From assembly GCA_002396805.1 (NCBI GenBank), contig DGYW01000058.1:45591-109590 (forward strand): a stretch of 64,000 bases of DNA, in the 5' to 3' direction. The position numbers were made by a program, and so were the translations under genes. The notes beneath the pieces were generated by a model. The model was not told the origin of the DNA, made no database searches, and was given only the letters and a program-made list of their open reading frames with translations. Shown here piece by piece: positions 34,256 to 51,967 of this stretch. The DNA comes from Firmicutes bacterium UBA4996. GTDB taxonomy: Bacteria > Bacillota > Limnochordia > Darwinibacteriales > Darwinibacteriaceae. Within the stretch, counting starts at the first letter, position 1. Each line of letters starts with the position of its first letter.

Positions 34256-34719
34256 CAGTTCTTTGGGAAGGCTTTTTGCAGGGCTTACAAGGGGTATGGA
34301 CAGTAGCCAGGGTAGTGATCCCTCTAATGATAATCTTGGAAATTGCTCAGGGTAATGGGCTACTCCAAAAACTAAATCGACTTTTGGCCCGCCCTTTTCG
34401 AGCCATCGGTCTAGGCGAGGAGGGGGCTTTTCCCGTTGTTGTGGCCATGGTGTTTGGCCTAACCTTCGGCTCTGGGGTAATCTTGAATCACGTACGGGAA
34501 GGGAAAGTTAGTCCCGAGGAAACCAAAGTGATTGGCACGTTCATGGCCTTAGCGCATGCTTTGATTGAGGATACGATTATCTTCATGAGTCTTGGTGCAC
34601 CTTTACTACTGTTGATTCTTCCTCGCGTTATGGTGGCCTATCTTATGGCCTATTTAGTAAATAGACGTAACCAACACTTATCCTTACCGGAGGGGCACCA
34701 CATCCAAGGTATCAATTAG
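34252..34719 (+). CDS. nucleoside-recognition domain membrane protein, SpmB-like
   Basis: Tandem partner of the previous gene, translationally coupled to it. Confidence 0.5.
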   Translation: MTVLWEGFLQGLQGVWTVARVVIPLMIILEIAQGNGLLQKLNRLLARPFRAIGLGEEGAFPVVVAMVFGLTFGSGVILNHVREGKVSPEETKVIGTFMALAHALIEDTIIFMSLGAPLLLLILPRVMVAYLMAYLVNRRNQHLSLPEGHHIQGIN

Positions 34720-35931
34720 CCAGTTTTCTTCGCCTGGGCTGAGACCCAGATTGAGTAGTAATCGCATTTGGGGTGAGTGGGGAACAAAGACTGTGATGCT
34801 CAACGGCTCTAGGGCGATGTATTTTATCTCCCACTGTGTATTGGTGTTTAAAGTATATAAGAACTCCTTAATTTGCTCGACCCGACCTTGTGGGCTGATT
34901 AATGACTCTAGTTGATCCTTCTCTTCTAGTTGTACTGCCGTTTGCAGAGTCTGTACAAAGGATTTTAATGATTGTTCCACTACTGGAGGAACCTGTTGGC
35001 TAGCAGGGACTAGAGAAAAGTTCTGTAAAATCAAGGCACCATTTGCTTCGTGCCAACTCATGGTAGCTAAGAACATTGAGCCTTTTTGGGTGATGAAAAC
35101 CACCTGAAAGGGCTCTTCTGCAAATGTCGGATGCGTGACAAACTCGCTAGTGATTCCTCCATAGGTTTTCGGGAAACTAGCTAAATACAGGGGAAGCCCC
35201 TGCTGTTGCAAGTTTGAACTCACTAAGTTCTCTATCCCTTCCGTATTGCGGTTATTGATGAAATTCACAAGCCTAGCCACTTGGATTTGGATCCTAGATA
35301 GAAACTCTTCCGTTGGAGGCACTTGTTCTATCTGTGGGAGTTGCTCCATAGGTAAGTTATCCTCAGGTAAGTGTTCCTGAGATAAGCGTTCTTCAGACAA
35401 GTGCTCCTTACGCTGGACAGTAAACTCAGGATAGCCCTTCGCCAAGGGTTGCCAAGTAGTCAACGAAGACGTGCTCTTTACTTCGCTATGTAGCCTTTGG
35501 ACCATGTTAATTTCCCACTCTTGAGGCAGCTCGGCTGTAAAGGTGGGTGGCCTAACGGGAAATGAAAATTCAGGAAACCACAGAGTATCACGGTCCAAGG
35601 TGATCTGGTTACCTTTCAAGGACAAAAAACCTTCGTAAGATAAATCTAAGATGGGTGAATGGGCCAGTGTCCCAACGGAAAAAGTTACAACTGTACCTTG
35701 GGACCCTCGTTCGATTTGATAGTTTTCTAATCCTTCTACCCAAAACTCGGTGATCTGGGCGTTGGGAAATACCAAGAAGGAGAGGGGAGCACTGCTAGGT
35801 TCCATGGCTAGTTGTCCCTCTACCCGCAAGTAGCCATTGTCCGGCAAGTAAAACACCTTGACTTCGGCCGTAGCAATGCCCCCTAGACAGAGGAGCAAGC
35901 ATAGAATTGAGTAGAAATAGAGTTTTTTCAT
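34684..35931 (-). CDS. hypothetical secreted or membrane-anchored protein
   Basis: N-terminal signal/TM segment (MKKLYFYSILCLLLCLGGIATA). No recognisable family. Confidence 0.5.
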   Translation of the reverse strand: MKKLYFYSILCLLLCLGGIATAEVKVFYLPDNGYLRVEGQLAMEPSSAPLSFLVFPNAQITEFWVEGLENYQIERGSQGTVVTFSVGTLAHSPILDLSYEGFLSLKGNQITLDRDTLWFPEFSFPVRPPTFTAELPQEWEINMVQRLHSEVKSTSSLTTWQPLAKGYPEFTVQRKEHLSEERLSQEHLPEDNLPMEQLPQIEQVPPTEEFLSRIQIQVARLVNFINNRNTEGIENLVSSNLQQQGLPLYLASFPKTYGGITSEFVTHPTFAEEPFQVVFITQKGSMFLATMSWHEANGALILQNFSLVPASQQVPPVVEQSLKSFVQTLQTAVQLEEKDQLESLISPQGRVEQIKEFLYTLNTNTQWEIKYIALEPLSITVFVPHSPQMRLLLNLGLSPGEENWLIDTLDVVPLR

Positions 35932-35986: not shown

Positions 35987-36412
35987 CTATGTAGTTAAGC
36001 GCATGGTGCGATGGGGGATACCACCGTCTATAAAGACTTCGCCTTCTACAACAAAACCCAACTGGGCATAGAAGTCTAGGGCTTGGATTTGAGCACCTAG
36101 TACAAACTCCTCTAATCCTTGTTTTTGACCAGTGGCTATTATGGTGTTGATGAGCCTACTTCCAAATCCACGACCACGATATTCTGACAAAATGGCTACC
36201 CGTCCAATTCTACCTATCTGGTCTTGGGTTACCAGGCGACCGGTTCCGACCAATTGACCTTCTAAGAATACTCCAAAATGCTGTGCCGTGTCATCATGGC
36301 TGTCGTATTCTTCCTCTACAGGTACTTGCTGCTCTTCTACAAAAACCTTTAGGCGAATCTCCATCGCTTGGGGAAATTCCTCTGACTTAAGTTGACGATA
36401 GGTTACCGACAA
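35987..36412 (-). CDS. GNAT family N-acetyltransferase
   Basis: GNAT motif A region (RGRGFGSRLINTI). It is transcribed divergently from the fusion gene below. Confidence 0.65.
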   Translation of the reverse strand: MSVTYRQLKSEEFPQAMEIRLKVFVEEQQVPVEEEYDSHDDTAQHFGVFLEGQLVGTGRLVTQDQIGRIGRVAILSEYRGRGFGSRLINTIIATGQKQGLEEFVLGAQIQALDFYAQLGFVVEGEVFIDGGIPHRTMRLTT

Positions 36413-36542
36413 GGCTTGACCTCCTAGATCTGAATCTGCGTTTTTTAGTAATGTTCACTCTTTTTCATTGAAATCCCTGCCTGTGATTGCTATAATTGGA
36501 AGTGTGCACAAAGTGTGCGCAGAACTGAAGGGGGTTCAAAGA

Positions 36543-39167
36543 ATGCATCCATATATTGAGTTTGTCAATCCGCATTTAGGTAAAATGTTAACCGAGATCG
36601 GTTTGAATAAACGTTTTCAACGTGGCCTTGGCTGTAGTCTGTTCGACGACGAAGGAAATGAGTACTTAGATTGCATTGCAGCCTATGGGGCACTGCCTTT
36701 CGGTTATAATCCCCCGGAGATTTGGCAGGCTGTACATACTTTAGAATCAAGTCAGGAGCCGAGCTTTATTCAGCCGTCTCTGCTTGAAGCAGCCGGTGCT
36801 TTGGCCGCAAGACTTGTTGAGATTGCTCCTGCTGGACTGAAACAGGTCACCTTTGCCAACAGCGGGGCAGAAGCAGTGGAAGCAGCCTTTAAACTCTCCC
36901 GGGCGAAAACAGGCAAACTTACGATTTTAAGCACAAAAAACAGCTTTCATGGTAAGACTCTAGGTGCTCTTTCAGCAACCGGCAATACAGGTTACCAAGA
37001 AGTATTTGGTGCTCCCGTACCCGGTTTTCGGCATATTCCCTATGGAGATCTAGAGGCCCTTCAGGCGTACCTGGTAGACTATGCGGACGAAACGGCGGCG
37101 TTTATCGTGGAGCCTATTCAAGGAGAGGGTGGAATTGTAGAGCCTCCTGCTGGGTATTTACGGGGTGTGCAAGAGCTTTGTGCAGAGTATGGAGTGTTAA
37201 CAATCTTCGATGAGATCCAAACGGGTTTAGGGCGTACCGGAACCATGTTTGCTTGTGAAAAAGAAGGTGTTACTCCCGATGTGATGGTGATCGCTAAGGC
37301 CCTGGGTGGTGGGTTAATACCTATTGGTGCGGCGCTTTGTAAATCCCAGGTATATACAGAGGATTTTGGTCTCAAGCACTCCTCGACCTTTGCCGGTAAT
37401 GCTCTTGGTTGTCGAGTGGGTTTGGCTGTAATCGATTTACTTACCAAGGATGACAGAATCCTTCTAGATGAAGTCACCCAGAAGGGTAAGGTGCTCAAAT
37501 CTGGCCTAGAAGAGATAGCTCGGTGTTATCCGCAAATCATCACCAAAATCCGGGGAGAAGGTTTAATGCTTGGTATTGAGTTTAATGACTCCAAAATCCC
37601 CTACCCCCACAGTTTGCTAGGGGTTATGGCTGAACAAGAAATGTTGACTCCCATGATCTCTTCGTATCTGTTGAATGTGGAAAGAATTCGTGTAGCACCC
37701 ACCCTCAACGGTGCCAGTGTAATTCGTATTGAACCGGCTCTAGTCATTAGCGATGCGCAGATTGAGTGCGTGCTCCAGGGAGTAGAGCGGACTGTGCAGA
37801 TGCTAGCGCAACGTAATACAGCGGCGTTTCTTGGCCATTTGGTAGACTTTACACCTAGCCGTAATGGTGCACCGGAAGTCACTGTTACCACTGCGGAGGA
37901 AGTGGCACCACAGCCAGAGGACGGTCGCTTCGCTTTCTTAGTGCATCCGGTAGATCTGCAGAATTACTGCGAGTTCGATGAGAGCCTAGCTTTGCTTAGC
38001 GAGGAACAACTGGAAGACCTTAGTTCTCGTTGGAATGATTTAGTGGAACCGTTTGTTGTGAGCGGAACCAGGATTGTTGATCAAGAGGGGCAAAGTGCTT
38101 ATGGTGAGTTTATTTGTGTGCCCAAGACAGCTGATGAGCTTTTAGCACTAGATGCTGAGCAGGCTACTGCTGAGATTAGCAAGGCCGTTAGTTTGGCTGC
38201 AGAGCGGGGGGCCAAGATTGTGGGACTAGGGGCCTATACCTCTGTGGTTACTATGGGTGGCAGAAGGTTGTTATCCCATACTGACGTAGCCTTAACAACC
38301 GGTAATAGCTACACAGTGGTTTCGGGCGTGGAAGCTATCTTGACTGCTGCACAGCGGATCGGAATGGAGCTAAGCCAAGTAACTGGGGCGGTCGTTGGCG
38401 CTGGAGGCGCCATTGGTAAGGCCCTAGCCTTATTGTTGGCTGAACAGGTCGAACGGCTTCTTCTGATCGGGAATCCCAACAGGCCAGAAAAAAGCGAGTA
38501 TCGCATGCTCCGGGTAGCTGCGGAAATTATCCAACATCTCCGAAACCTGGCCCAAACTGGCCATGTGTTTTCCCAGGGTAGCCTTGGTGCATATGTGACT
38601 CAGTTGAAAAATTTGCCGCAAGATGATGAGCCTGTGGGAGTTTGGATTGAGTATGTGCAACAGCTGGTGGCCAGTGATGCACCCATTGTCATCACTGTAG
38701 ATAGTAAGAAATATCTACCCCAAGCAGACGTAATTATGGTAGCCACTAGTAGCTTAGAAACGCTGATTACTTCGGAATTGCTGAAGTGGGGAGCCCTCGT
38801 TTGCGACATGTCAAGACCGAGCAACGTCAGCAAACAGGTGCTGGAAGAACGTCCTGATGTGTTGGTGATTGACGGAGGAGTCGTGGCTGTACCCAATCAA
38901 CCGGACTTAGGTTGGAATTTTGGTTTTGAGGTGGGAGATGCCTTCGCTTGTATGTCTGAGACTATGATGCTAGCTCTGGAAAAGCGTTATGAACACACTA
39001 GTTTAGGAGCGGATTTAAATCTCGGTCAATTGCAGTTGATGCGTGAGTTGGCTGAAAAGCAAGGTTTTGCTCTCGCTGGTTTCCGCAATTTTGATCGACC
39101 ACTTGCACCCGGAGTGTGGGAGCGGGTGCGATCTCTAAGACAACAGTCCATGGGTCAAGCGAGGTAG
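36543..39167 (+). CDS. fusion protein: class-III PLP aminotransferase (N-terminal) joined to an acyl-ACP reductase (AAR)-like NAD(P)-binding domain (C-terminal)
   Basis: Start ATG 36543 follows a GGGGG RBS. N-terminal half: FDEIQTGLGRTG and the Schiff-base lysine region MVIAKALGGG. C-terminal half (about nt 37935 onward) aligns motif by motif with cyanobacterial AAR: LVHPVDL versus FGLIGHLTSL, IVGLGAYTSVV versus ISALGGFTSII, and TTGNSYTV..GAVVGAGGAIGKALA versus TTGNTHTA..VAVVGATGDIGSAVC. Confidence 0.7.
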   Translation: MHPYIEFVNPHLGKMLTEIGLNKRFQRGLGCSLFDDEGNEYLDCIAAYGALPFGYNPPEIWQAVHTLESSQEPSFIQPSLLEAAGALAARLVEIAPAGLKQVTFANSGAEAVEAAFKLSRAKTGKLTILSTKNSFHGKTLGALSATGNTGYQEVFGAPVPGFRHIPYGDLEALQAYLVDYADETAAFIVEPIQGEGGIVEPPAGYLRGVQELCAEYGVLTIFDEIQTGLGRTGTMFACEKEGVTPDVMVIAKALGGGLIPIGAALCKSQVYTEDFGLKHSSTFAGNALGCRVGLAVIDLLTKDDRILLDEVTQKGKVLKSGLEEIARCYPQIITKIRGEGLMLGIEFNDSKIPYPHSLLGVMAEQEMLTPMISSYLLNVERIRVAPTLNGASVIRIEPALVISDAQIECVLQGVERTVQMLAQRNTAAFLGHLVDFTPSRNGAPEVTVTTAEEVAPQPEDGRFAFLVHPVDLQNYCEFDESLALLSEEQLEDLSSRWNDLVEPFVVSGTRIVDQEGQSAYGEFICVPKTADELLALDAEQATAEISKAVSLAAERGAKIVGLGAYTSVVTMGGRRLLSHTDVALTTGNSYTVVSGVEAILTAAQRIGMELSQVTGAVVGAGGAIGKALALLLAEQVERLLLIGNPNRPEKSEYRMLRVAAEIIQHLRNLAQTGHVFSQGSLGAYVTQLKNLPQDDEPVGVWIEYVQQLVASDAPIVITVDSKKYLPQADVIMVATSSLETLITSELLKWGALVCDMSRPSNVSKQVLEERPDVLVIDGGVVAVPNQPDLGWNFGFEVGDAFACMSETMMLALEKRYEHTSLGADLNLGQLQLMRELAEKQGFALAGFRNFDRPLAPGVWERVRSLRQQSMGQAR

Positions 39168-39186
39168 TTAGAAAATTTTATTTATG

Positions 39187-39210
39187 CCGGGAAACTCTCC
39201 CGGTTTTTTT
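39187..39210 (+). terminator. rho-independent terminator after the fusion gene
   Basis: Hairpin CCGGGA-aactc-TCCCGG followed by TTTTTTT. Confidence 0.7.
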
Positions 39211-39242
39211 ATTTATCTGTTATAATGTAAAGGAAAGGTGGT

Positions 39243-40061
39243 GTGCGGGTGCATATTGTTGTTTGTATCAAACAAGTTCCCGAAACTAGAAATGTAGAGG
39301 TTTGTCCAGAAACTGGTGTCTTATTACGTGATGGGGTAGATAGTATTATGAACCCCTTTGATCTGTATGCCCTTGAGGCTGCCTTACGACTGAAGGAGCA
39401 ATACGGTGGAACCGTTTCTGTAATTTCCATGGGTCCTCCACAGGCTCAGACCGTAATCAGAGAAGCCTATCAAATGGGCGCAGATCGAGGTTATCTGTTA
39501 TCTGATCGGGCATTTGCAGGTGCGGATACCTTAGCTACCTCTTACACTCTGGCCCAAGGGATCGAAAAACTAGACGCCTATGATGTCATTCTTTGCGGTT
39601 TGCAGACAACAGATGGGGACACGGCACAAGTTGGCCCAGGTATTGCTGAGGTCTTAGGAATACCCCATGAATCAAATGTTTCTCGGGTGCTGGGGGCCAC
39701 TGCAGATGGTCTGCAAGTGATTAGCGATCTAGGGACGATGGTGTACACCAAGAGCATCAAATTTCCTTGTTTGGTTACCCTCACAAAAGGGGTAGGTGAG
39801 CCCCGCCTTTTATCGTTCAAGCTTAAACAAAGCACTAGGGATTGGCCCATTACTACGTGGTCAGCCGCTGATTTAGACAGCGCTGCTCAAGATTTTTTTG
39901 GTCTCAGCGGGTCACCCACTCAGGTAGAACGGATCTTTCCGCCTACCGTAAGTGATAGTTTCGAGACTTGGGAAGGTAGCGGACTGGAGTTAAGTCACAA
40001 GTTAGTGCAAAAATTGCAGGAATTACGTTTGGTGGAGGGTGTTGAACGTGCTCAGAATTAA
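39243..40061 (+). CDS. etfB: electron transfer flavoprotein beta subunit (LctB-like)
   Basis: EtfB N-terminus (VCIKQVPE) in a 272-aa protein. Confidence 0.85.
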   Translation: MRVHIVVCIKQVPETRNVEVCPETGVLLRDGVDSIMNPFDLYALEAALRLKEQYGGTVSVISMGPPQAQTVIREAYQMGADRGYLLSDRAFAGADTLATSYTLAQGIEKLDAYDVILCGLQTTDGDTAQVGPGIAEVLGIPHESNVSRVLGATADGLQVISDLGTMVYTKSIKFPCLVTLTKGVGEPRLLSFKLKQSTRDWPITTWSAADLDSAAQDFFGLSGSPTQVERIFPPTVSDSFETWEGSGLELSHKLVQKLQELRLVEGVERAQN

Positions 40062-41238
40062 CCATGATCTCTGCACCTTGTGCGAACACTGTATTAGCGT
40101 TTGTCCCTTTGGAGCTCTACAACTAGCTCACGATAGCATTCAAGTTCTTGATGCATGCCGACTCTGCAAAATTTGCGTGAGACAATGTCCAGTGGAGGCT
40201 ATGTATATTGAATCCACAACTTCTACGCCCGAAGCCACTCCAGACGCCCGAGATGTGCTAGTGGTAGCGGAATTTGAGAACGGTGGGCTGCATCCAGTTA
40301 CCCTAGAGCTGATTGGAAAAGGGCGGGAAATGGCGGACGAGATTTCTGCCAGCCTAGGTTGTGTGTTGATTGGCTTCGGTTCTGCTTCCCACGGTGAGTA
40401 TGTATTAGAATACGGTGTTGATCGGGCCTTCATCTTTGATCACGAGGAGCTAGAGCACTTCCGAATTGAACCCTACACTTGCGCGGTTGAAGAGGTAATC
40501 AAAGAATTTGAGCCAGCAATCGTACTTTTTGCCGCCACACCTATAGGGCGCTCCCTAGCACCGCGGGTGGCTGCCCGGTGTCGCACAGGATTAACGGCTG
40601 ACTGCACTACTCTAGAGGTGAGACCTAACGGGGAGTTGGTCCAGATCAGACCTGCCTTTGGAGGTAATATTATGGCCCAAATTATTACTCCCAATCATCG
40701 ACCCCAAATGGCTACCATGCGTTATAAAATTATGGATCCAGCCAAACCCAGGCGTAATCCTGGGGCTAGAGTGGAAGTCCGGGAGTTAGCTAGTGAGGCA
40801 TTAGCTTCTGCTATTAAGGTCTTGAATGTCGAGAAAAGACCACCTGAAGTTAGTATCGCAGATGCGGAGATTATTGTGGCCGCTGGTCGGGGGATTGGTG
40901 ATCGGGAAACTCTGGCACTTGTTGAAAAATTGGCCCATTTGTTAGGTGGGCAAGTGGGGGTTACTCGCCCCTTAGTCGAAGCGGGTTGGGCCGATTATAC
41001 TCAGCAGATCGGCTTAAGCGGACGCGCAATTCGGCCGAAGTTGTTAATAACGGTGGGTGTTTCAGGTGCGGTACAGTTTTCTGCTAGTGTAACTGGAGCA
41101 GAAGTAATTGTAGCCATTAATAATGATCCTCACGCTCCCATCTTTAAAGTAGCCCATTATGGCTTAGTGGGGGATTTACACGAGATTTTGCCTGCCTTAA
41201 TTAACGATCTTCAGGAGGTGACTGCATATGCCATATAA
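40039..41238 (+). CDS. etfA: electron transfer flavoprotein alpha subunit with an N-terminal 2x[4Fe-4S] ferredoxin domain (LctC-like)
   Basis: Two CxxCxxCxxxCP motifs sit N-terminal to the EtfA FAD-binding domain. Confidence 0.85.
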   Translation: MLNVLRINHDLCTLCEHCISVCPFGALQLAHDSIQVLDACRLCKICVRQCPVEAMYIESTTSTPEATPDARDVLVVAEFENGGLHPVTLELIGKGREMADEISASLGCVLIGFGSASHGEYVLEYGVDRAFIFDHEELEHFRIEPYTCAVEEVIKEFEPAIVLFAATPIGRSLAPRVAARCRTGLTADCTTLEVRPNGELVQIRPAFGGNIMAQIITPNHRPQMATMRYKIMDPAKPRRNPGARVEVRELASEALASAIKVLNVEKRPPEVSIADAEIIVAAGRGIGDRETLALVEKLAHLLGGQVGVTRPLVEAGWADYTQQIGLSGRAIRPKLLITVGVSGAVQFSASVTGAEVIVAINNDPHAPIFKVAHYGLVGDLHEILPALINDLQEVTAYAI

Positions 41239-42619
41239 TAAAGTTACTTTAGAGGATGTTCAAAAGTTTAGACAGATTTGTGATTCTCAGCGAGTTTTGT
41301 GGAAAGAGGCAATTTCACCAGATTATTCCCATGATGAGTTATCCTTAGAGCAGAATCCACCTGAAGTAGTTGTGTTGCCCAATTCCACTCAGGAAGTTTC
41401 GCAGATTCTTGCCTATTGCTCCAAACGTAACATTCCTGTTACACCTAGGGGAGCAGGCACTGGTCTTTGTGGTGGTGCCGTTCCCCTATATGGTGGAGTA
41501 GTTTTAGTCACAACAGAAATGAACAGGATTCTGGAGATCGATCAAGAAAACTTAATGGCAGTGGTAGAACCAGGTGTTCTACTCCTGGAGTTACAGAATA
41601 CCGTAGAAGAGTTGGGTCTGTTTTATCCGCCCGATCCTGGCGAAAAGACAGCCACTATTGGGGGAAACGTTAGTACCAATGCCGGTGGTATGCGAGCCAT
41701 CAAGTATGGCGTAACCCGGGACTTTGTTTTAGGGTTGGAAGCGGTCTTGCCCGATGGACGGATTATTGAGACTGGTGGCAAGGTTTATAAAAACAGTTCA
41801 GGTTATAGCCTGACGGATTTACTGATCGGGGCAGAGGGTACTTTAGCCGTAATTACCAAGATCATTTTGCGTCTCTTGCCGAAGCCTAGTCGCCAATTAT
41901 CCCTAGTGGTGCCCTTTGATGGTCTTTCACCAGCTGTAGCCGCGGTACCGAAAATATTGAGTGCTGGGGAAATCCCTTCCGCCTTAGAATTTTTCCAAAG
42001 AGAGGTTTTGGAGGCGGCTGAAAAGTATCTTGGGCGTAGTTTTCCCCATGGTGAGGCACCAGCCTACCTCATGTTAACCTTTTGGGGAACGGATGCGGTT
42101 GAATTGGAGAAGACGTATGAGCGAGTGGCGAGAGTTTGCCTTGATAATGGGGCCCATGATGTGCTCATTGCCCACACTGCTGATCGCCAGGAGGCTTTGT
42201 GGGAGAATCGTGGTGCTTTCTTAGAGGCTCTAAAGGGTATGGGTGAGCTAGATGAGGTCGATGTGGTGGTGCCTCCTAATCAAGTTGCGGCTTTTATTGA
42301 GTTCACAGAGGAACTACGCGTAGAATATCAGTTGCCCATCCTTAGTTTTGGTCATGCCGGTGATGGTAATCTCCATATTTACCTACTTCGAGATAAAATG
42401 GAGAGGGAGGCGTGGTTAGCTTTGACCCAACAAGCAATGAAAGAGATCTACGCCCACGCCAAGGAGTTGCAGGGATTGGTTTCTGGCGAGCATGGAATTG
42501 GTTTTGCAAAAAAACCCTACTTAGAGCAGGCACTTAGTCCGGCTGTCTTAGAGTTAATGCGCGCCATAAAGCTTGTGTTTGATCCAAATCAACTCATGAA
42601 TCCCGGTAAAGTGTGTTAG
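41228..42619 (+). CDS. FAD-binding oxidoreductase (GlcD / D-lactate dehydrogenase-like, LctD-like)
   Basis: PCMH-type FAD-binding domain (GAGTGLCGG) in a 463-aa protein coupled to etfBA. Confidence 0.8.
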   Translation: MPYNKVTLEDVQKFRQICDSQRVLWKEAISPDYSHDELSLEQNPPEVVVLPNSTQEVSQILAYCSKRNIPVTPRGAGTGLCGGAVPLYGGVVLVTTEMNRILEIDQENLMAVVEPGVLLLELQNTVEELGLFYPPDPGEKTATIGGNVSTNAGGMRAIKYGVTRDFVLGLEAVLPDGRIIETGGKVYKNSSGYSLTDLLIGAEGTLAVITKIILRLLPKPSRQLSLVVPFDGLSPAVAAVPKILSAGEIPSALEFFQREVLEAAEKYLGRSFPHGEAPAYLMLTFWGTDAVELEKTYERVARVCLDNGAHDVLIAHTADRQEALWENRGAFLEALKGMGELDEVDVVVPPNQVAAFIEFTEELRVEYQLPILSFGHAGDGNLHIYLLRDKMEREAWLALTQQAMKEIYAHAKELQGLVSGEHGIGFAKKPYLEQALSPAVLELMRAIKLVFDPNQLMNPGKVC

Positions 42620-42631
42620 GAGTGATTTAAG

Positions 42632-43894
42632 ATGAGTAAACTAGCCCTTCATGGCGGTACCCCTGTGCGCACTAAGCCTTGGGTATCTAAATACATGGGT
42701 AGTGAAGAATTGGGTGCAGAAGAAAAGACGAGAGTGCTCAAGGTCTTAGATAAAAAGCGGGTGTTCCGTTATTATCCGGTAGGACTTGAGGACTCTGAAA
42801 CCAGTATTTTAGAGCAAGAGTACAAAGATTTTCTCGGAACGGACTACGCCCTCGCGGTAAATTCGGGTACCTCGGCTTTAATTTGTGCCTTGATTGCCGC
42901 CGGTGTGGGTCCAGGTGATGAAGTAATTATCCCTGCCTATACCTGGGTAGCCACTGCAGCGGCTGTAGCCATTGTTAATGCGGTTCCTGTTTTAGCAGAA
43001 GTTGATACCAGTCTGACCCTTGATCCTAAAGATTTGGCACAGAGGATCACCCCCAGAACCAAGGCCATTATTGTAGTACATATGCGGGGAATATCTGCTG
43101 CCATGGACGAAATTCTGGAGATCGCCAGAAAGCACAATCTCATGGTCATTGAAGATGCAGCGCAGGCCAACGGTGGTACCTATCGAGGCAAAATGCTTGG
43201 TTCCATTGGTGACCTCGGTTGTTTTAGCCTACAACAATCTAAGGTGATCACCACTGGCGAAGGCGGTATGTTAGTCACTAACTCCGAGGAACTCTGGCAA
43301 CGGGCTGTTCTCTATCATGATGGGGCAGGCTATCAATTTCGTTTCATTGAGCGCAAGATTCCCGCTTTTCCTGGGCAAAATTATCGGTTGACTGAGCTTC
43401 AGGCAGCTCTTTCTTTAGGACAATTGGAGAAGATGCCTGCAATCCTGCAAAAAACCCACAGCACGAAGAAAAAACTTGTGCAGAAACTGCAAGAACAGCC
43501 GAAAATCGAATTATCCCCAGTTTTTGGGACAGAGCGGGATTTGGGTGTCAGCTTGATTTTCTATCTAGAAAATTCCCCAAAGGCTAAGGTAGTGGCGGAG
43601 GCGTTAACTGCTGAGGGCATCCCAGCTTTCCAAGTCTATGATCGGCAGGCTAATGATCAACACATTTACGTTAACTGGGAATTCCTTGTGGAACGACGGG
43701 ACCCCTGGGGTGGTAGTTATCCCTGGTCATCTCCAGCCTATGAAGGCAGTGTTGATTACTCGGAAGCTAGTTGCCCCTTTACTCTAGATTTGCTTAGCCG
43801 GTCAGTACAAATCCATCTCAACCACTTAGTAACTGATGAAGATGTGGATGACATTGTGTTGGCCATTAATAAAGTCGCGAATCACTTACTTTAA
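42632..43894 (+). CDS. DegT/DnrJ/EryC1/StrS family PLP-dependent aminotransferase
   Basis: Fold-type I sugar-aminotransferase-like motifs, including the conserved lysine region (FSLQQSKVITTGEGG). Confidence 0.65.
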   Translation: MSKLALHGGTPVRTKPWVSKYMGSEELGAEEKTRVLKVLDKKRVFRYYPVGLEDSETSILEQEYKDFLGTDYALAVNSGTSALICALIAAGVGPGDEVIIPAYTWVATAAAVAIVNAVPVLAEVDTSLTLDPKDLAQRITPRTKAIIVVHMRGISAAMDEILEIARKHNLMVIEDAAQANGGTYRGKMLGSIGDLGCFSLQQSKVITTGEGGMLVTNSEELWQRAVLYHDGAGYQFRFIERKIPAFPGQNYRLTELQAALSLGQLEKMPAILQKTHSTKKKLVQKLQEQPKIELSPVFGTERDLGVSLIFYLENSPKAKVVAEALTAEGIPAFQVYDRQANDQHIYVNWEFLVERRDPWGGSYPWSSPAYEGSVDYSEASCPFTLDLLSRSVQIHLNHLVTDEDVDDIVLAINKVANHLL

Positions 43895-43954
43895 TTTAGC
43901 TAGAAAACAGGTCAAGACTCCGCTGACCTGTTTTGCTGATCGGGAGGGTTTAAA

Positions 43955-44767
43955 GTGCAGTTCACTAAGTATCATGGGCTTGGAAATGACTTTATTTTTG
44001 TGGAAGACTTTGGAGGGAATCTCGTACCTAATGGCGAAAGTCTTGCTAAACTCATCTGCCACCGCCAATTTGGCATCGGTGCAGATGGTTTAGTGTTAGT
44101 TACTGGCGATGCTAGTCAGTACACCATGCGCATCTTTAACTCCGATGGTAGTGAAGCGGAAATGTGCGGTAACGCCATTCGTTGTATGGCTGATTACTTG
44201 TTAGAACATCGTTTGGCAACGGGACCTGTCTTGACTATCGGCACCATTAGCGGCCCTAAGGAGATTAGGGTTGCCGGTGATTTGTACGTGGTGGACATGG
44301 GAGAACCGGATTTTTCGTTCAATAAGGGAGAAATGGTAGAACTGGATTCCCATGGTGAAATTTGGACCGCCTATCCGGTTTCTATGGGTAACCCCCATGG
44401 CGTTGTGTTCGTTGAGGACATGGAGGAATTGGATTATTGTACTTGGGGTCCCCGTTTAGAAGCCCATTCTACTTGGCCCCACAAGGCCAATATTGAGTTT
44501 ACCCAAGTCTTAAGCTCAAATCATCTGAGTGTACGAGTATGGGAGAGGGGCGCAGGTCCCACCTTGGCTTGTGGCACAGGTGCCTGTGCTGCAGCGGTAG
44601 TGGCGAGCAAATTAGGTTTGGTTGATGCAGGACCAGTAAGGGTTACATTGCCGGGAGGGGACTTGTTGATTGAGTGGGCGGCTGATAATCGAGTCTTTAT
44701 GACTGGGCCTGCCACTAAAGTCTTTACCGGTGTAATTAATATCAATAATCTAGAAAGCGAGAGATAA
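43955..44767 (+). CDS. dapF: diaminopimelate epimerase
   Basis: N-terminal motif KYHGLGNDFIF and two catalytic Cys regions. Confidence 0.9.
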   Translation: MQFTKYHGLGNDFIFVEDFGGNLVPNGESLAKLICHRQFGIGADGLVLVTGDASQYTMRIFNSDGSEAEMCGNAIRCMADYLLEHRLATGPVLTIGTISGPKEIRVAGDLYVVDMGEPDFSFNKGEMVELDSHGEIWTAYPVSMGNPHGVVFVEDMEELDYCTWGPRLEAHSTWPHKANIEFTQVLSSNHLSVRVWERGAGPTLACGTGACAAAVVASKLGLVDAGPVRVTLPGGDLLIEWAADNRVFMTGPATKVFTGVININNLESER

Positions 44768-46241: not shown

Positions 46242-47150
46242 GTGGAGATTATGGCTGTTATTGAAGTGGTGGAATTGAAAAAGAGATTTGGGGACTTTTT
46301 TGCTCTAGATGGAGTTAATTTAACGGTAGAAAAAGGCGAGATTTACGGATTTATTGGACCCAACGGCGCCGGTAAGACCACCACGATCAGAATACTTTTG
46401 GGTATGCTCCAGGCGACTTCTGGTCAAGCACTTGTTTTTGGTCAGGATGCTTGGTCTGACGCGCTGAAAATTCATGAGCGGGTAGCCTACGTGCCAGGAG
46501 AAGTCAGCTTGTGGCCTAACTTGACTGGAGGCGAAGTTATTGATTTCTTCATGCGCCTCAGGGGTAGGCAAGCGAATAACCGTCGTGACGAACTTATTGA
46601 AAGGTTTGATCTAGATCCTTCCAAAAAGTGCCGGACATATTCTAAGGGGAACCGCCAAAAGGTGGCTTTAATTGCCGCTTTTGCTTCTGAGGCCGATTTC
46701 TATATTTTAGACGAGCCAACATCGGGTTTGGATCCTCTCATGGAACATGTTTTTCAAGACTGTATTCGTGAGGCCAAGAAACAGGGGAAGAGTATATTGC
46801 TCTCGAGCCACATTCTCTCTGAAGTGGAGAAGCTTTGCGACCGAGTGAGCATCATCAGAAGTGGGCAGATCATTGAAAGTGGTACACTAGATGAACTGCG
46901 CCACCTTACTCGAACGGCGATTAAGGTAACAACCAGGTCCCCTCTAAAGGGCTTGGCAGACTTTCCAGGGGTGCACGATCTGCAGGACAATCGCGGTGTT
47001 ACTCACTTTGCGGTGGATGGAGAGGCGTTGGGCGCTGTAATAGAACATCTAAGTAAATTTGGAATTAGCCAACTGGAGAGTGCACCACCTACGCTTGAAG
47101 ATCTCTTTCTTCATCACTATCAGGGGGCGGGAGGACCAGAGAATGGCTAG
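46242..47150 (+). CDS. ABC transporter ATP-binding protein
   Basis: Walker A GPNGAGKTT, signature YSKGNRQKV and Walker B ILDEPTSGLD. Confidence 0.85.
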   Translation: MEIMAVIEVVELKKRFGDFFALDGVNLTVEKGEIYGFIGPNGAGKTTTIRILLGMLQATSGQALVFGQDAWSDALKIHERVAYVPGEVSLWPNLTGGEVIDFFMRLRGRQANNRRDELIERFDLDPSKKCRTYSKGNRQKVALIAAFASEADFYILDEPTSGLDPLMEHVFQDCIREAKKQGKSILLSSHILSEVEKLCDRVSIIRSGQIIESGTLDELRHLTRTAIKVTTRSPLKGLADFPGVHDLQDNRGVTHFAVDGEALGAVIEHLSKFGISQLESAPPTLEDLFLHHYQGAGGPENG

Positions 47151-48747
47151 AGATCTGTTTGTCCGTTTAAGGCATCTTGGTCTATTTATTCTGCGTAGGG
47201 ATAGGCTCCAGCTAGCCATCTGGATTTTTGCCATAGCTTCGCTTAATGTTATGGTGGCTCTTGCTTATGATGGCCTGTATCAAAATGCTGTAGAGCGGGC
47301 AACCATGGCGGAAATTATGCAGAATCCCGCGATGACATTCATGCTTGGGCCGGGTTATGGGTTGGATGACTATACAATAGGTGCCATGATGGGGCACCAA
47401 ATGCTTCTTTTTTCGGCTTTGGGTGTGGCTATCATGAATATTCTTTTAGTTGCGAGACATTCAAGGGCCGATGAAGAGGCCGGGCGCACCGAGTTAATTC
47501 GTTCTTTGCCAGTAGGTAGATTAGCAAGTTTGGGAGCTATTTTAGTCGTTGCAGTATTGGTAAATATTGGATTAGCATTGGTTGTGAGTTTTAGTTTGTT
47601 TGCTTGTCAAGTGGAATCGGTTACTCTTGCGGGCTCTCTCCTCTACGGCTTTCTTTTGGGAGTGGTGGGTTTTCTTTTCGCGGCAATTACCGCGTTGCTT
47701 GCGCAAATGACAGAGAGCTCCCGAGGTACATTGGGCTATTCTCTTGCAGCTTTGGGCCTATGCTATATTGTGCGGGGAGTAGGCGATGTGAGTAGTGAGC
47801 TTTTGGCTATACTGTCCCCATTAGGGATGATCCTGCGAGCTCAAGTTTATGTGAATAATCTGTGGTGGCCGGTGTATTCAGTTACGATTCTAGGGATAAT
47901 ATTCGCGGGTGGCGCCTTTTTCATAAATTCACGCAGAGATTTGGGTGGCGGATTAATCTCGGCCCGACCAGGACGCACTACTGCTTCTACTTTTTTGCGT
48001 GGTCCCTTCGGTCTAGCATTAAACTTGCAACAAACTACCATTATTGCTTGGTTAGTGGGACTCTTTCTTTTAGGTTTGAGTTATGGTTCTGTCTTCGGTG
48101 ACGTGGAGCTTTTTCTTGAAGGTAATGAGTTTCTCCGGGATATTCTGCCTATGGCTCTAGGCTTCACTCTGACAGAGCAATTCCTTGCTTTGTTAATGTC
48201 CATTCTTGCCATGTTAGCTACCGTTCCGGCCCTGTTAGTGTTGCTTAAAGTGCGGGCTGAGGAGGGGGACACACATGTGGAGCAGGTATTAGCAACAGCC
48301 ATATCCAGAACTCGAATATTATTGAGTTTTGTGTCCTTAGGGGTTGTGGTAGGACTTCTGAGTCTGGTTTTGTCGGGGCTGGGCCTTTGGTTGGCGGCCA
48401 ATGGAGTAATGGATGAGTCTATTTCGGTAATGACGATTATGCAAGCTAGCTTGGCCCAATTTCCCGCGATTCTTGTTATGCTAGCTCTGGCTACTTTTTT
48501 GTTTGGCTGGTGGCCTCAATACATTAACTTAGTGTGGTTGTATTTTGCTTACTCCTTGTTTACGGTCTATTTTGGCGTATTGCTAAAGTTGCCTACCTGG
48601 TTAAAACGACTTTCTCCTTTTGGAGTGTTGCCCCAGATGCCTATTGAACCTTTCGAGCCTATAGTGGCGCTTTGGCTTATTGCCTTTTTTGTGATTGTAT
48701 TGCTGTTGGGATTAAAGGGATTCACAAGGCGCGATTTGAACAACTAA
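47143..48747 (+). CDS. ABC-2 family permease (start ATG 47143 overlaps the upstream stop)
   Basis: Polytopic membrane protein of about 534 aa, coupled to the ATPase. Confidence 0.7.
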   Translation: MARDLFVRLRHLGLFILRRDRLQLAIWIFAIASLNVMVALAYDGLYQNAVERATMAEIMQNPAMTFMLGPGYGLDDYTIGAMMGHQMLLFSALGVAIMNILLVARHSRADEEAGRTELIRSLPVGRLASLGAILVVAVLVNIGLALVVSFSLFACQVESVTLAGSLLYGFLLGVVGFLFAAITALLAQMTESSRGTLGYSLAALGLCYIVRGVGDVSSELLAILSPLGMILRAQVYVNNLWWPVYSVTILGIIFAGGAFFINSRRDLGGGLISARPGRTTASTFLRGPFGLALNLQQTTIIAWLVGLFLLGLSYGSVFGDVELFLEGNEFLRDILPMALGFTLTEQFLALLMSILAMLATVPALLVLLKVRAEEGDTHVEQVLATAISRTRILLSFVSLGVVVGLLSLVLSGLGLWLAANGVMDESISVMTIMQASLAQFPAILVMLALATFLFGWWPQYINLVWLYFAYSLFTVYFGVLLKLPTWLKRLSPFGVLPQMPIEPFEPIVALWLIAFFVIVLLLGLKGFTRRDLNN

Positions 48748-48807: not shown

Positions 48808-49806
48808 TTAGACAACTCCGCCAAGGTCTGTGCCGGCTAAGGCCACTACTAGGTCCACACAGGCTTGCACATCACGTACGTCCACCATTTCGGAAGGTGA
48901 ATGGACATAACGGGTGGGAATGGAGATAGCTCCTGAGGGAATCCCTGCCTTAGTCAGGTGAATTGCTCCTGCATCTGTTCCACCAGCATCTAATACTTCC
49001 ATTTGATAAGGGATGCTATTTTTCTCTGCCAAATCAATAAGTAGTTCCTTGACCTTAGGATGGACAAGAAGGGAGGAGTCTTTAACCTTAATGGCGGCCC
49101 CTTTTCCTAAAGAGACTTCCATCCGTCTTGCTTCAGGCATATCACCTGTCAAAGTCACATCGAGGGCGATGCCCAGATCAGGTTCTAAGCCATAAGCAGA
49201 AGTTCTTGCTCCCCTGAGACCAACTTCCTCTTGAGTGGTGAAGACGAAGTAGAGGGTGTTAAGGGGTTTTTCTAGCTTCTTGAGGGCTTCTACCAATACG
49301 GCACACCCAACGCGGTCATCCATGCTTTTGGCGATGAGGCGATTTCCTAAATCTGTGAATTCCCGATGGAAGATTCCAAATTCGCCAACGGAGACTAGTT
49401 TTTGGGCTTCTTCTTTGTTGTCGGCTCCTAGATCAATGTATAACTTATCGAGATTGAGTTCTTTCCAATCACCTTTTTCTTGGTAGATCACGCCAATCGC
49501 ACCACTGGCAAAGCGGACCCGGTTGCCCACCAGGGTGGAAATTCCTACGCCTCCTACATTGGAGAAACGGAGGAAACCCTGATCATCTATGTGGGTCACG
49601 ATCACGCCGATTTCATCGGTATGGGCTGCGAACATGATCGTTTTACCGTTTTCTTGACCTCGCTTAATTGCGATTAGATTACCCATGACATCGGTCCTAA
49701 TCTCGTCCACATGATCTTTTACCATGGTCTTGATTAAATCCGTGACTTCCGTTTCAAAACCAGATGGCCCAAAGGCCTCGGTTAATCGTTGAATAACTGT
49801 CTTCAT
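48808..49806 (-). CDS. M42 family metallopeptidase (TET aminopeptidase / FrvX-like), copy 1 of 3
   Basis: M42 metal-binding motifs (HTDEIG, TTQEEVGLRGA). Confidence 0.85.
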   Translation of the reverse strand: MKTVIQRLTEAFGPSGFETEVTDLIKTMVKDHVDEIRTDVMGNLIAIKRGQENGKTIMFAAHTDEIGVIVTHIDDQGFLRFSNVGGVGISTLVGNRVRFASGAIGVIYQEKGDWKELNLDKLYIDLGADNKEEAQKLVSVGEFGIFHREFTDLGNRLIAKSMDDRVGCAVLVEALKKLEKPLNTLYFVFTTQEEVGLRGARTSAYGLEPDLGIALDVTLTGDMPEARRMEVSLGKGAAIKVKDSSLLVHPKVKELLIDLAEKNSIPYQMEVLDAGGTDAGAIHLTKAGIPSGAISIPTRYVHSPSEMVDVRDVQACVDLVVALAGTDLGGVV

Positions 49807-49811
49807 GTAGA

Positions 49812-50831
49812 TTATCCCTCCCTTTCTTGGAGACGCCGTAAGTAGTTCTTAACTAGTTGATAAACACCGTCAAAGTCGTCTTGACTCATGACCGATACTG
49901 GTGAGTGGATATAGCGACAAGGCACCGCAATGGTGGCCACTTTGGCACCCTCTTTGGTTAGCTGAATTCTTCCCGCATCTGTTCCACCAGTATTGGTACG
50001 GCGTACTTGTACTGGAATATTTTCTTCTTTTGCGATCCGAAATAACTCTCGTACAAGTGGTGGATGGGGAATAGTGGCTCGATCCATCACCGTAATGGCC
50101 GGTCCTTTTCCTACAGAAGTGGCGTGTTTGTGCTCCTTTGTTTCGGGCACATCAGAAGCGGTGGTGCCTTCTAGAATTAGGGCAATATCTGGCTCGATTT
50201 GATACGCAGCTACACCTGCTCCCCTTAGACCAACTTCTTCTTGTACTGTGAAAGCGGCAATTAAGGGAAAAGTAACCTCTTCTTGGAACAACCTGATGGC
50301 CAGTGCACAACCGACTCGGTCGTCTAGGGCTTTCGCTTTCACTTTGTTGTGACCAAATTCCTCATATTTAGTAGTGAAGTAAGCGATATCGCCTAATTTG
50401 ACTAGACGTTCCGCTTCTTCTTTACTTTTTGCTCCAATATCAATCAATAGTTCTTGGATGGTCAGGGCCCTCTGGCGCTCTTCGGGGCGTTGGAGATGAA
50501 TAGGCTTACTACCAATGACTCCATTAACCTTTTTAGATCCCACTACTACAGTCTTGGCCACTAATACCCTAGGATCGACACCACCAATTGGCCTGAATTT
50601 CAGATAGCCATTACTTTCGATACCTACAATCATGAGAGCCACCTCGTCCATGTGGGCAGCTAACATCACCCGTGGGCCAGGGGCATTGGCATTTTTAATG
50701 GCTAGCAAGTTTCCCAAAGCGTCTGTTTTAATTTCGTCGGCGTGGGGCGCAATCTCGCTACGGATTAAATCCCGCACTTCACCTTCTTGCCCAGGTGCGC
50801 CACACACTTCTGTTAAGCGGGCTAGAAGCAT
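49812..50831 (-). CDS. M42 family metallopeptidase, copy 2 of 3
   Basis: HMDEVA and TVQEEVGLRGA motifs. Confidence 0.85.
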   Translation of the reverse strand: MLLARLTEVCGAPGQEGEVRDLIRSEIAPHADEIKTDALGNLLAIKNANAPGPRVMLAAHMDEVALMIVGIESNGYLKFRPIGGVDPRVLVAKTVVVGSKKVNGVIGSKPIHLQRPEERQRALTIQELLIDIGAKSKEEAERLVKLGDIAYFTTKYEEFGHNKVKAKALDDRVGCALAIRLFQEEVTFPLIAAFTVQEEVGLRGAGVAAYQIEPDIALILEGTTASDVPETKEHKHATSVGKGPAITVMDRATIPHPPLVRELFRIAKEENIPVQVRRTNTGGTDAGRIQLTKEGAKVATIAVPCRYIHSPVSVMSQDDFDGVYQLVKNYLRRLQEREG

Positions 50832-51877
50832 GTCAATCCCTCCACAAATTCATTATCCAATCCAGCGATGAACAAAGCCATCAGTTTTCCCGTGCGTTTC
50901 ACATCCTCATAATCTAGGGTCTCGATGGGGGTGTGCATATAACGTAGGGGGATGGAAAGGAGAATGGTTGCCACACCGGCTCTAGTTACTTGGATGGCAT
51001 AGGCATCTGTGCCACCAGGTGAAGGGGAAGGATCCACAGAATAATTAATATTCCACTCCTTAGCGGTTTCCACCATTCGCTCGTACACCTTTGGATGGAC
51101 ATGGGGTCCAATTGCCACTCCAGGGCCTTGACTGAGTTTGATCGTGTCACTCTCTGGCAAACCTGGCTGATCTCCAAAACCTACATCGATAGCTATACCT
51201 AAATCTGGAACAATGCCGTAGGTACTGGTTACTGCACCCCGGAGTCCGACCTCCTCTTGAACGGTGGCAACACCATAGACATCTGCTTCGTGCTTTAATT
51301 CTGTGAGAACTTTAAAACACTCAAAAATAGCGGCCACCCCGGCCCGGTCGTCGAAGGCTTTACCCGCCATAAGGGATCCTTGCAGATCCACAACTTCTCG
51401 TTTGATGGTGGCTAAATCACCAATGCGGACAAGTTCTTGCACCTGCCCCACAGTGTCATAACCCACATCGATGAACAGGTCCTCCAATTTGACAGCTTGG
51501 TTTTGCTCACCTTGGGTTTGCACATGGGGAGGTTTTGCCCCAATGATTCCAGTTAATTGTGCTTTGCCATGGACTATCACTTCTTGCCCGAGCAAAACCC
51601 GCTGGTCGAATCCTCCAACGGTGCTAAAGCGGAGAAAACCGTCTTTTTCTATCTTAGTAATAATTAGACCAATTTCGTCCATGTGGGCGGCTAACATGAT
51701 CTTAGGCCTGCCCTTGGCTCCTTGTCCCTTTTTGAGCATAATCACGTTGCCCAGTTTGTCGGTGCGAATTTCATCAGCCCACAAGCAGGCTTCTTTGATG
51801 GGCTCCGCCACTTCCTGCTCGTATCCGGATATGCCCGATGCTTCGCTCAGGGTCCGGAAGAATTGTTTTACATCCAC
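50822..51877 (-). CDS. M42 family metallopeptidase, copy 3 of 3. The start is reassigned to GTG (complement of 51875..51877), which follows an AAGGAGGG RBS.
   Basis: HMDEIG and TVQEEVGLRGA motifs. The longer ORF reaching 51976 has no RBS and adds a non-homologous 33-aa extension. Confidence 0.8.
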   Translation of the reverse strand: MDVKQFFRTLSEASGISGYEQEVAEPIKEACLWADEIRTDKLGNVIMLKKGQGAKGRPKIMLAAHMDEIGLIITKIEKDGFLRFSTVGGFDQRVLLGQEVIVHGKAQLTGIIGAKPPHVQTQGEQNQAVKLEDLFIDVGYDTVGQVQELVRIGDLATIKREVVDLQGSLMAGKAFDDRAGVAAIFECFKVLTELKHEADVYGVATVQEEVGLRGAVTSTYGIVPDLGIAIDVGFGDQPGLPESDTIKLSQGPGVAIGPHVHPKVYERMVETAKEWNINYSVDPSPSPGGTDAYAIQVTRAGVATILLSIPLRYMHTPIETLDYEDVKRTGKLMALFIAGLDNEFVEGLTCF

Positions 51878-51967
51878 GCATTTCCCTCCTTTGCAGTTTG
51901 CTTGTATTATTTCTAGTTCGTCGGAGGAAAAACCTGCATAACCTAGAATTAATCTAGATGGGAAGAG

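Follow-up and report, generated by a model that had tools for sequence, protein, structure and literature searches.

Can one bacterial protein convert an acyl thioester to a primary amine outside a specialised-metabolite gene cluster, and what would it make there? The question is raised by a gene in a 64-kb stretch of DNA from Firmicutes bacterium UBA4996 (contig DGYW01000058.1, positions 45,591 to 109,590), which was analysed at its full length of 64,000 nucleotides and is called the window here. Coordinates are those of the window and refer to the forward strand (+) unless the reverse strand (-) is named. The gene (36543..39167, stop codon included) encodes a protein of 874 amino acids (aa) with a transaminase (TA) domain followed by a thioester reductase (TR) domain, and is referred to as TA-TR. 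It was delimited from the list of open reading frames (ORFs), its translation, the context of the start codon, domain matches and an alignment to PtTamH of Pseudoalteromonas tunicata. The initial annotation had described a class-III omega-type aminotransferase joined to a reductase resembling acyl-acyl carrier protein (ACP) reductase (AAR), with a nucleotide-binding core, and this description was confirmed with Pfam, NCBIfam, the PDB and Foldseek.

Two catalytic domains in one protein

The N-terminal TA domain comprises residues 1-431 (36543..37835) and is a class-III pyridoxal phosphate (PLP) aminotransferase of the YgjG/PigE omega-transaminase type. The Pfam model Aminotran_3 (PF00202) matched it nearly end to end (residues 26-417, E 3.5e-93), and its closest solved structures were the putrescine aminotransferase YgjG of E. 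coli (E 2e-90) and the TA domain of PigE (E 3e-87). All four motifs quoted in the initial annotation were located in the 874-aa protein, namely FDEIQTGLGRTG at residue 222, MVIAKALGGG at residue 248, TTGNSYT at residue 585 and AVVGAGGAIG at residue 616. The second of these holds Lys252 (VIAKALGGG, codon 37296..37298), the predicted PLP Schiff-base lysine, which aligned with K340 of PtTamH and is a lysine in 73 of the 73 full-length orthologues that we aligned.

A poorly conserved interdomain linker (residues ~432-460, 37836..37922) leads to the TR domain, which resembles AAR by NCBIfam, PDB, AlphaFold2 model and Foldseek and occupies residues 461-874 (37923..39164). Searches with this domain were done with the C-terminal 429-aa fragment, in which residues 17-207 correspond to residues 462-652 of the protein. 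The fragment gave no significant Pfam match, Shikimate_DH and THF_DHG_CYH_C being weak and under the cut-off. It did match the NCBIfam model of PigE (E 4e-47, over profile positions 1-193 and a second stretch) and that of the cyanobacterial AcACP_reductase (TIGR04058, E 7e-23), and among solved structures PigE's N-terminal domain (PDB 4PPM, residues 2-337; E 4e-27) and the AAR of S. elongatus (Synechococcus; 6JZQ, E 1.6e-13). The AlphaFold2 model of the TR domain was confident (pLDDT 89.9, pTM 0.89). Foldseek placed AAR (6jzy/6jzu) first with E 2e-21 and TM 0.77-0.80, and the carmabin terminal amidation domain second with E ~1e-17, whereas generic Rossmann dehydrogenases, including glutamate and phenylalanine dehydrogenases, reached E values of 5e-6 or higher and TM of ~0.3. 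The possibility, raised in the initial annotation, that this domain belongs to an unrelated Rossmann family therefore fails, the more so since the AAR catalytic residues are present.

In the TR domain, the nucleotide-binding motif G619-A-G-G622-A-I-G625 (38397..38417) aligned with GATGDIG of AAR and with G707xxG710xxG713 of PtTamH. Cys803 (DAFACMSE, codon 38949..38951), the predicted acyl-enzyme nucleophile, paired with Cys294 of AAR (MFACFAE), Cys296 of PigE and Cys887 of PtTamH, and it is a cysteine in 73/73 orthologues. Sequence and fold together establish an AAR-type active site, with Cys803 beside a Rossmann nucleotide site, as well as a complete class-III PLP site with Lys252.

The protein is not confined to this genome. 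Independent assemblies yielded a protein that is 100% identical as well as over 100 clusters of full-length relatives (56-85% identical). Candidatus Darwinibacter and metagenome-assembled genomes (MAGs) of Limnochordia are among the relatives. A search for the same architecture elsewhere had been recommended in the initial annotation, and in the 73 full-length orthologues that it yielded for alignment all catalytic residues were kept; Lys252, Asp223, Gln226, Gly619, Gly622, Gly625, Cys803, Glu806 and Thr807 were invariant. The mean identity to the window protein was 62% in the TA domain, 53% in the TR domain and 17% in the linker. Purifying selection acts on both halves within one protein, and the linker is variable.

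The window protein and PtTamH also aligned as a whole. BLASTP gave 29% identity over 765 aa (E 1e-73) in one collinear alignment that runs through both domains and the linker, in which the GxGxxG motifs matched, K252 fell on K340 and C803 on C887. The PtTamH sequence was taken from the supplement of the paper and contains minor errors from optical character recognition.

Proposed reaction and substrate

We consider it probable that TA-TR is a bifunctional enzyme of the TamH/KecF type that would turn a lipophilic acyl thioester into an aldehyde and this into a primary amine, in a core physiological role. The proposal draws on sequence, on the structure model and on analogy with PtTamH, which has the same domain order. 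It was reported that TamA (ANL-ACP) and PtTamH convert dodecanoic acid through C12-ACP and the C12 aldehyde to dodecylamine, and that PtTamH works with NADH and L-Glu but not with C12-CoA (PMC9594044). By analogy, these assays support the thioester-to-aldehyde-to-amine chemistry that the initial annotation had put forward for the window protein.

In the proposed mechanism the acyl group would move from a phosphopantetheine thioester onto Cys803, where hydride from NAD(P)H would reduce the bound acyl to the aldehyde. The donor would most likely be ACP, judging from AAR and PtTamH. As the homologues suggest, the aldehyde would be handed to the N-terminal YgjG/PigE-type transaminase with its Lys252 and be aminated to the primary amine at the cost of an amino acid, probably glutamate or alanine. 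The substrate would probably be a medium- or long-chain lipophilic acyl group from the cell's own acyl-ACP pool.

As to the source of the thioester, a phmmer search with two ANL and two carrier domains from fused relatives against all six-frame ORFs found no ANL or carrier ORF in the 64 kb of the window. With neither an activating enzyme nor a carrier linked to the gene, the acyl-ACP pool would be the simplest source, as it is for cyanobacterial AAR. A fatty (long-chain) substrate appears plausible from sequence comparison. The alkyl-pocket positions F550, L554, I555, L560 and I563 of PtTamH correspond, in the alignment to its docked model, to F465, P469, V470, Y475 and F478 of the window protein, and these positions stay hydrophobic or aromatic in the orthologues (F465 in 73/73, Y475 in 68/73 and F478 in 60/73). 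This conservation would point, more weakly, to a lipophilic substrate.

Independent support comes from the wider TR family. When the TR domain was searched exhaustively, 2006 representatives (50% clusters) passed E<=1e-10 and 575 passed E<=1e-30, and TA-TR proteins of ~870-990 aa were among the best matches. Other architectures were TA-TR-ANL (~1400 aa), ANL-ACP-TA-TR (~1600 aa), TR-ANL (949 aa) and a protein of 2624 aa that resembles non-ribosomal peptide synthetases (NRPS) and polyketide synthases (PKS) and has the order ANL...AONS-like...ANL-ACP-TA-TR. The recurrent fusion of TR to adenylating and phosphopantetheine-carrier domains argues for carrier-bound thioester substrates and for a role from carboxylate to amine across the family. 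Beyond the orthologue group, the TR domain had its nearest relatives in multi-domain proteins (P0125, P0126, P0139, P0151, P0170 and P0209). By their domain content, such multi-domain relatives would be complete single-polypeptide modules from acid to amine, and we found no characterisation of them in the literature as far as it was searched. The cluster of PtTamH itself was absent from the 150 best TR representatives, and cluster look-ups of 10 distant representatives led to Chromobacterium, Streptomyces and metagenomes.

Several points weigh against the proposed conversion of a lipophilic thioester. The identity to characterised enzymes is only ~30%, and we infer the substrate with its chain length, whether the carrier is ACP or CoA, the cofactor and the amino donor. 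The nearest characterised relative of the TA domain is a putrescine aminotransferase, which keeps a polar omega-amino substrate in play. Since there is no acyl-activating or carrier gene within the 64 kb, the thioester source is an assumption, and the argument from the pocket is one of sequence, aligned to a docked PtTamH model.

If the product is indeed a long-chain amine, one possible use would be in membrane lipids. N-glyceroyl alkylamine lipids are long-known constituents of Deinococcus and Thermus. They have also been reported in Bacillota (Bale et al. 2025, as cited in PMC13274423), and N-glyceroyl alkylamines are listed for Moorella thermoacetica (PMC13274423). Going by these sources, long-chain alkylamines serve as bulk constituents of the membrane in some Bacillota, as they do in Deinococcus and Thermus. 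It is a tentative and rather doubtful idea that the Bacillota TA-TR clade is the alkylamine synthase which makes the long-chain alkylamines of N-glyceroyl alkylamine phosphoglycolipids from fatty acyl-ACP. The link is circumstantial and consists of the right type of reaction, a constitutive-looking housekeeping gene, a wide vertical distribution in Bacillota and envelope genes as neighbours in some lineages. We found no paper in the searchable literature that ties N-glyceroyl alkylamine lipids to an aminotransferase or to any gene. No Moorella protein was among the best 120 matches to a query with the Desulfovirgula orthologue, and tblastn against plasmids gave proteobacterial copies only, with none in Thermus or Deinococcus replicons. 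If true, the role of alkylamine synthase would supply a missing step in how bacteria make lipids.

Gene setting, distribution and competing explanations

The ATG at 36543 is the likely start of the TA-TR gene, giving 874 aa. Counted from the first possible TTG, the frame is open without interruption over 36468-39167. A predicted sigma-70-like promoter with an extended -10 TG (TTGAAA-17 nt-TGnTATAAT, 36468..36496), recognised by consensus match alone (11/12 matches), sits within this TTG-extended frame, which favours the ATG as start. The Shine-Dalgarno-like sequence GAAGGGGG (36527..36534) was read 8 nt 5' of the ATG. Past the stop codon, at a distance of 19 nt, follows a hairpin resembling an intrinsic terminator (GCCGGGA...TCCCGGT and then the T-run TTTTTTTATTT, 39186..39214), which lies between TA-TR and the downstream electron-transfer flavoprotein (ETF) genes. 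With its own promoter and its own terminator, the gene looks like a stand-alone transcription unit. The chromosome is that of a Bacillota host of the Limnochordia type. The neighbours of TA-TR in the window are housekeeping genes (pgi, pmi, znuABC, the pseudouridine synthase gene rluD, spmA/spmB, dapF, a GDPD-family phosphodiesterase, M42 peptidases and TldD/PmbA), and no PKS or NRPS gene was found among the neighbours scanned.

In a scan that covered one genome per species, relatives of the TR domain turned up in at least 574 genomes; the best 80 were almost all Bacillota, with Limnochordia, Symbiobacteriaceae, Thermaerobacter, Syntrophomonadaceae, Peptococcaceae, Dethiobacteria, Halanaerobiales and Brassicibacter represented. 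Outside this phylum the best 80 contained a few myxobacteria and two MAGs, one of Limnocylindrales and one of Pyrinomonadaceae. The Bacillota TA-TR clade is vertically conserved and present in hundreds of species, of which several are thermophiles. Cultured bacteria that carry the gene include Symbiobacterium thermophilum, Thermaerobacter subterraneus, Sporotomaculum syntrophicum and Brassicibacter mesophilus DSM 24659. A stand-alone unit in a housekeeping region, within a vertically conserved clade, argues for a core physiological product and not for a strain-specific secondary metabolite.

Among the myxobacteria, TA-TR proteins occur in Corallococcus, Archangium, Stigmatella, Nannocystaceae and Polyangiaceae (L031, L084, L085; P0361, P0370). 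Those of Archangium and Stigmatella are ~56% identical to one Bacillota orthologue, and the TR domains of the Corallococcus, Nannocystaceae and Polyangiaceae proteins are 44-54% identical to the TR domain of the window protein. Sequence similarity of this kind suggests that the myxobacterial copies came by horizontal transfer, and they offer genetically tractable hosts for TA-TR.

We compared 85 related loci, and no neighbour was conserved family-wide. The synteny of the window is kept in relatives of the Limnochordia group, and more distant orthologues lie in different, again housekeeping, surroundings. In the Limnochordia, dapB, dapF and a DegT-type aminotransferase gene adjoin TA-TR, and dapB can come directly after it (L004). 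Together with the conservation of the gene, its isolated position among housekeeping genes and a TA domain that is closest to YgjG of E. coli, this could speak for a polar or short substrate; a succinyl-, malonyl- or omega-aminoacyl-thioester would then be converted through the semialdehyde to GABA (gamma-aminobutyric acid), beta-alanine or a diamine in primary metabolism or for the cell wall. We regard such a substrate as unlikely, as the dap synteny is found only in close relatives and not in other lineages, the pocket-equivalent residues are conserved as hydrophobic or aromatic, and the closest characterised TR relatives (AAR, TamH and PigE) act on lipophilic acyl chains. A link of TA-TR to the diaminopimelate/lysine genes (dapB, dapF and DegT-type) was rejected for the same limitation of the synteny to Limnochordia.

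The DegT/DnrJ/EryC1-type aminotransferase itself (420 aa, within 42632-44767) stayed under every NCBIfam cut-off. It was also found in L003, L004, L006 and L008-L011, where it is kept beside dapF, and beside dapB in L004, L010 and L011. It might be an unusual enzyme of the diaminopimelate pathway and not a sugar aminotransferase.

The hosts are Bacillota of anaerobic digesters and sediments, the TA domain resembles YgjG, and an aldehyde dehydrogenase gene lies 3' of TA-TR in Sporotomaculum. These observations would fit a catabolic direction, in which an amine (polyamine or alkylamine) is converted through the aldehyde to a thioester and TR acts as an energy-conserving acylating aldehyde dehydrogenase in fermentative or syntrophic anaerobes. 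We find this quite improbable, because all characterised members of the AAR/PigE/TamH group are reductive, the family-wide fusions to adenylating and carrier domains indicate biosynthesis, and no phosphotransacylase, kinase or other thioester-using partner is conserved nearby.

Equally improbable in our view is a coupling to the gene that is transcribed divergently from TA-TR. This gene (35987..36412, -) encodes a GNAT N-acetyltransferase of 141 aa, an identity given in the initial annotation and borne out by matches to Acetyltransf_10 (E 1e-17) and Acetyltransf_1. The initial annotation had suggested that this enzyme N-acylates a fatty amine made by TA-TR, which would give an N-acyl alkylamine. 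The two genes share a divergent intergenic region of 130 bp, and the part of the claim that stood is their adjacency, which recurs in six other loci, all of close relatives (L004, L007, L009, L010, L011 and L012). This corresponds to ~6 of the 69 loci with an upstream flank. The GNAT gene is, however, absent from the more distant lineages and has gone from L003, L006 and L008, where the flanking synteny is kept, and the protein stays under every NCBIfam cut-off, with generic small-molecule acetyltransferases as its top matches. Being confined to close relatives and lost inside otherwise conserved synteny, the coupling was rejected as a candidate partnership, and the suggested link is weakly supported overall.

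The characterised relatives are all encoded in clusters and many members of the family are fused to domains of the NRPS/PKS type, and on these grounds TA-TR could be expected to be a tailoring enzyme of a specialised-metabolite cluster, like PigE, TamH and KecF. This is essentially excluded by the gene's setting, since the 64-kb window holds no PKS, NRPS, ANL or carrier-protein gene and the housekeeping neighbours keep their synteny across species. Other lineages are alike in this respect. In Syntrophomonadaceae two M16 peptidases lie upstream of TA-TR, and ProRS and 5-formyltetrahydrofolate cyclo-ligase downstream (16-18 loci); another orthologue group has the order acpS-yjeF-alr, a Glucodextran_C protein and then TA-TR; and in some lineages glycosyltransferase and cell-envelope genes are neighbours.

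An artefact of assembly or gene calling that joined two genes, which the initial annotation had named as a possible refutation, is effectively refuted: two of the 85 loci do have separate TA and TR ORFs, but the window frame has no internal stop and 81 of the 85 loci, which come from independent assemblies and include the complete genome of Symbiobacterium thermophilum with its orthologue at AP006840.1 863273-865900, encode the same fused two-domain protein of ~870-880 aa. The two loci in which TA and TR are separate adjoining ORFs (L066:8585-11251 and L082:8588-11580) both come from MAGs, and they are real split genes or else the result of a frameshift or an error in assembly.

Some further features of the neighbourhood were recorded. 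In 21 loci (Symbiobacteriaceae, Limnochordales and Peptococcaceae) a helix-turn-helix (HTH) protein of 175 aa directly precedes TA-TR on the same strand. In 11 of these 21, among them the complete genome of Symbiobacterium thermophilum, the pair is separated by a highly conserved protein of 307 aa (MKRIVSVSLGSSKRNH...), the genes being spaced 4-50 bp apart. Such settings upstream of TA-TR were noted at L086:8508-9977 (Symbiobacterium thermophilum AP006840.1), L001:8475-9972 and 10-20 further loci. The 307-aa protein gave no Pfam, NCBIfam or PDB match, also when a 12-sequence profile was used, and neither gene occurs in the 64-kb window. Downstream of TA-TR, at 39243-42619, the window encodes EtfB (272 aa), an EtfA of 399 aa whose N-terminal part is a 2x[4Fe-4S] ferredoxin domain, and a FAD oxidase of the GlcD/LctD type (463 aa), a set which resembles electron-bifurcating lactate dehydrogenase/Etf complexes. 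None of the 85 related loci has this block, and by comparison with L003, which is otherwise syntenic, it is an insertion. A coupling of TA-TR to it was rejected, with the terminator between them and the block in 0/85 related loci.

A protein of 415 aa with a signal-like N terminus (34684-35931, -) had no Pfam or NCBIfam match and stands directly upstream of TA-TR on the opposite strand in 11 related loci. Three tandem paralogous genes of the M42 (glutamyl aminopeptidase) family are found at 48808-51976 (-), and the trio also occurs in L003 and L004. An ORF of 562 aa (47059-48747) follows the gene of an ABC ATPase and had no Pfam match; its counterpart in L003 gave faint matches to ABC-2 membrane proteins, and it is probably the permease of an ABC-2-type exporter.

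The interest of TA-TR lies mainly in its housekeeping context outside a cluster and in the size and conservation of the Bacillota clade. Conversion of a thioester to an amine by one protein is sought for the biocatalytic production of fatty amines, and TamH is the only characterised enzyme with the TA-TR order. Enzymes of the TamH type reach beyond a few proteobacterial pigment clusters and form a very large family, and the compact non-cluster version of ~875 aa in Bacillota is a source of many new candidate catalysts that may be thermostable. A physiological question follows as well, namely which primary amine anaerobic Bacillota make constitutively.

Comparison with known reductase-transaminase fusions

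The initial annotation did not recognise the fusion as a characterised enzyme; in fact PigE (PMC8341465), PtTamH (PMC9594044) and KecF (PMC6498172) had already been published. PtTamH belongs to the tambjamine YP1 pathway and has the TA domain first and the AAR-like reductase second (PMC9594044). The window protein has the same order throughout, with a class-III omega-transaminase at the N terminus, then a linker of ~30-50 residues, then the AAR-like reductase at the C terminus. PtTamH differs in its length, 941 aa compared with 874 aa, its TA domain bearing an insertion, and in its setting, as PtTamH lies in a pigment cluster with the dedicated ANL-ACP protein TamA whereas the window gene stands alone among Bacillota housekeeping genes.

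KecF of the koreenceine pathway in Pseudomonas koreensis has an N-terminal aminotransferase and a C-terminal COG5322 NAD(P)-binding reductase, and was predicted in 2019 to reduce and then transaminate an ACP-bound intermediate (PMC6498172). By its published description alone it has the same TA-TR arrangement as the window protein, but it belongs to a type II PKS cluster.

PigE of Serratia (PDB 4PPM), from the MAP branch of prodigiosin biosynthesis, was re-described in 2021 as a transaminase preceded in the same chain by an AAR-like thioester reductase with Cys296 (PMC8341465). Both catalytic modules and the cysteine are shared with the window protein. At the level of families PigE was the top match for each of the two domains, and its NCBIfam model (NF053554) was the best match to the whole window protein, with 553 bits, which is under the equivalog cut-off of 850. 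The match shows the permuted order of the domains, TR-TA in PigE and TA-TR in the window: residues 4-350 of the window protein matched model positions 383-730, and residues 462-652 matched positions 1-193. PigE also differs in acting on a 3-acetyloctanoyl thioester, and there is no pig cluster around the window gene.

Of the single-domain relatives, cyanobacterial AAR (TIGR04058; PDB 6JZQ/6JZY) has the fold, the nucleotide motif and the catalytic cysteine of the window TR domain, at ~21% identity and with a TIGR04058 score of 81.5 against a cut-off of 449.7, which was not reached. AAR is a stand-alone protein of ~340 aa whose aldehyde goes to the deformylating oxygenase ADO, whereas the window TR domain is fused to a transaminase; a Pfam scan of 28 ORFs around the gene, located from 22 to 55 kb, revealed none that is ADO-like. 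The terminal amidation domain (TAD) of CarI (PDB 9E4S; bioRxiv 10.1101/2024.10.28.620694) has an AAR-like fold that is more remote, binds NAD and carries an invariant cysteine; it is 15-17% identical, forms the C terminus of an NRPS, has been proposed to form an amide and has no fused transaminase. For the TA domain, YgjG is the closest solved stand-alone relative, and the putrescine aminotransferase YgjG/PatA models PRK11522 and TIGR03372 scored 349 and 310 bits, under their cut-offs of 612 and 658.

Judged from sequence and structure model, the window protein is thus a TA-TR of the TamH/KecF type, with a TA domain that holds the lysine, an AAR-like TR domain that holds GxGxxG and the cysteine, and collinear homology to PtTamH. 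The cluster with a dedicated acyl-activating or carrier partner, a further trait of this type, was not found for the gene in the 64-kb window. With ~30% identity, the protein is a distant member of the known TamH/PigE/KecF reductase-transaminase fusions.

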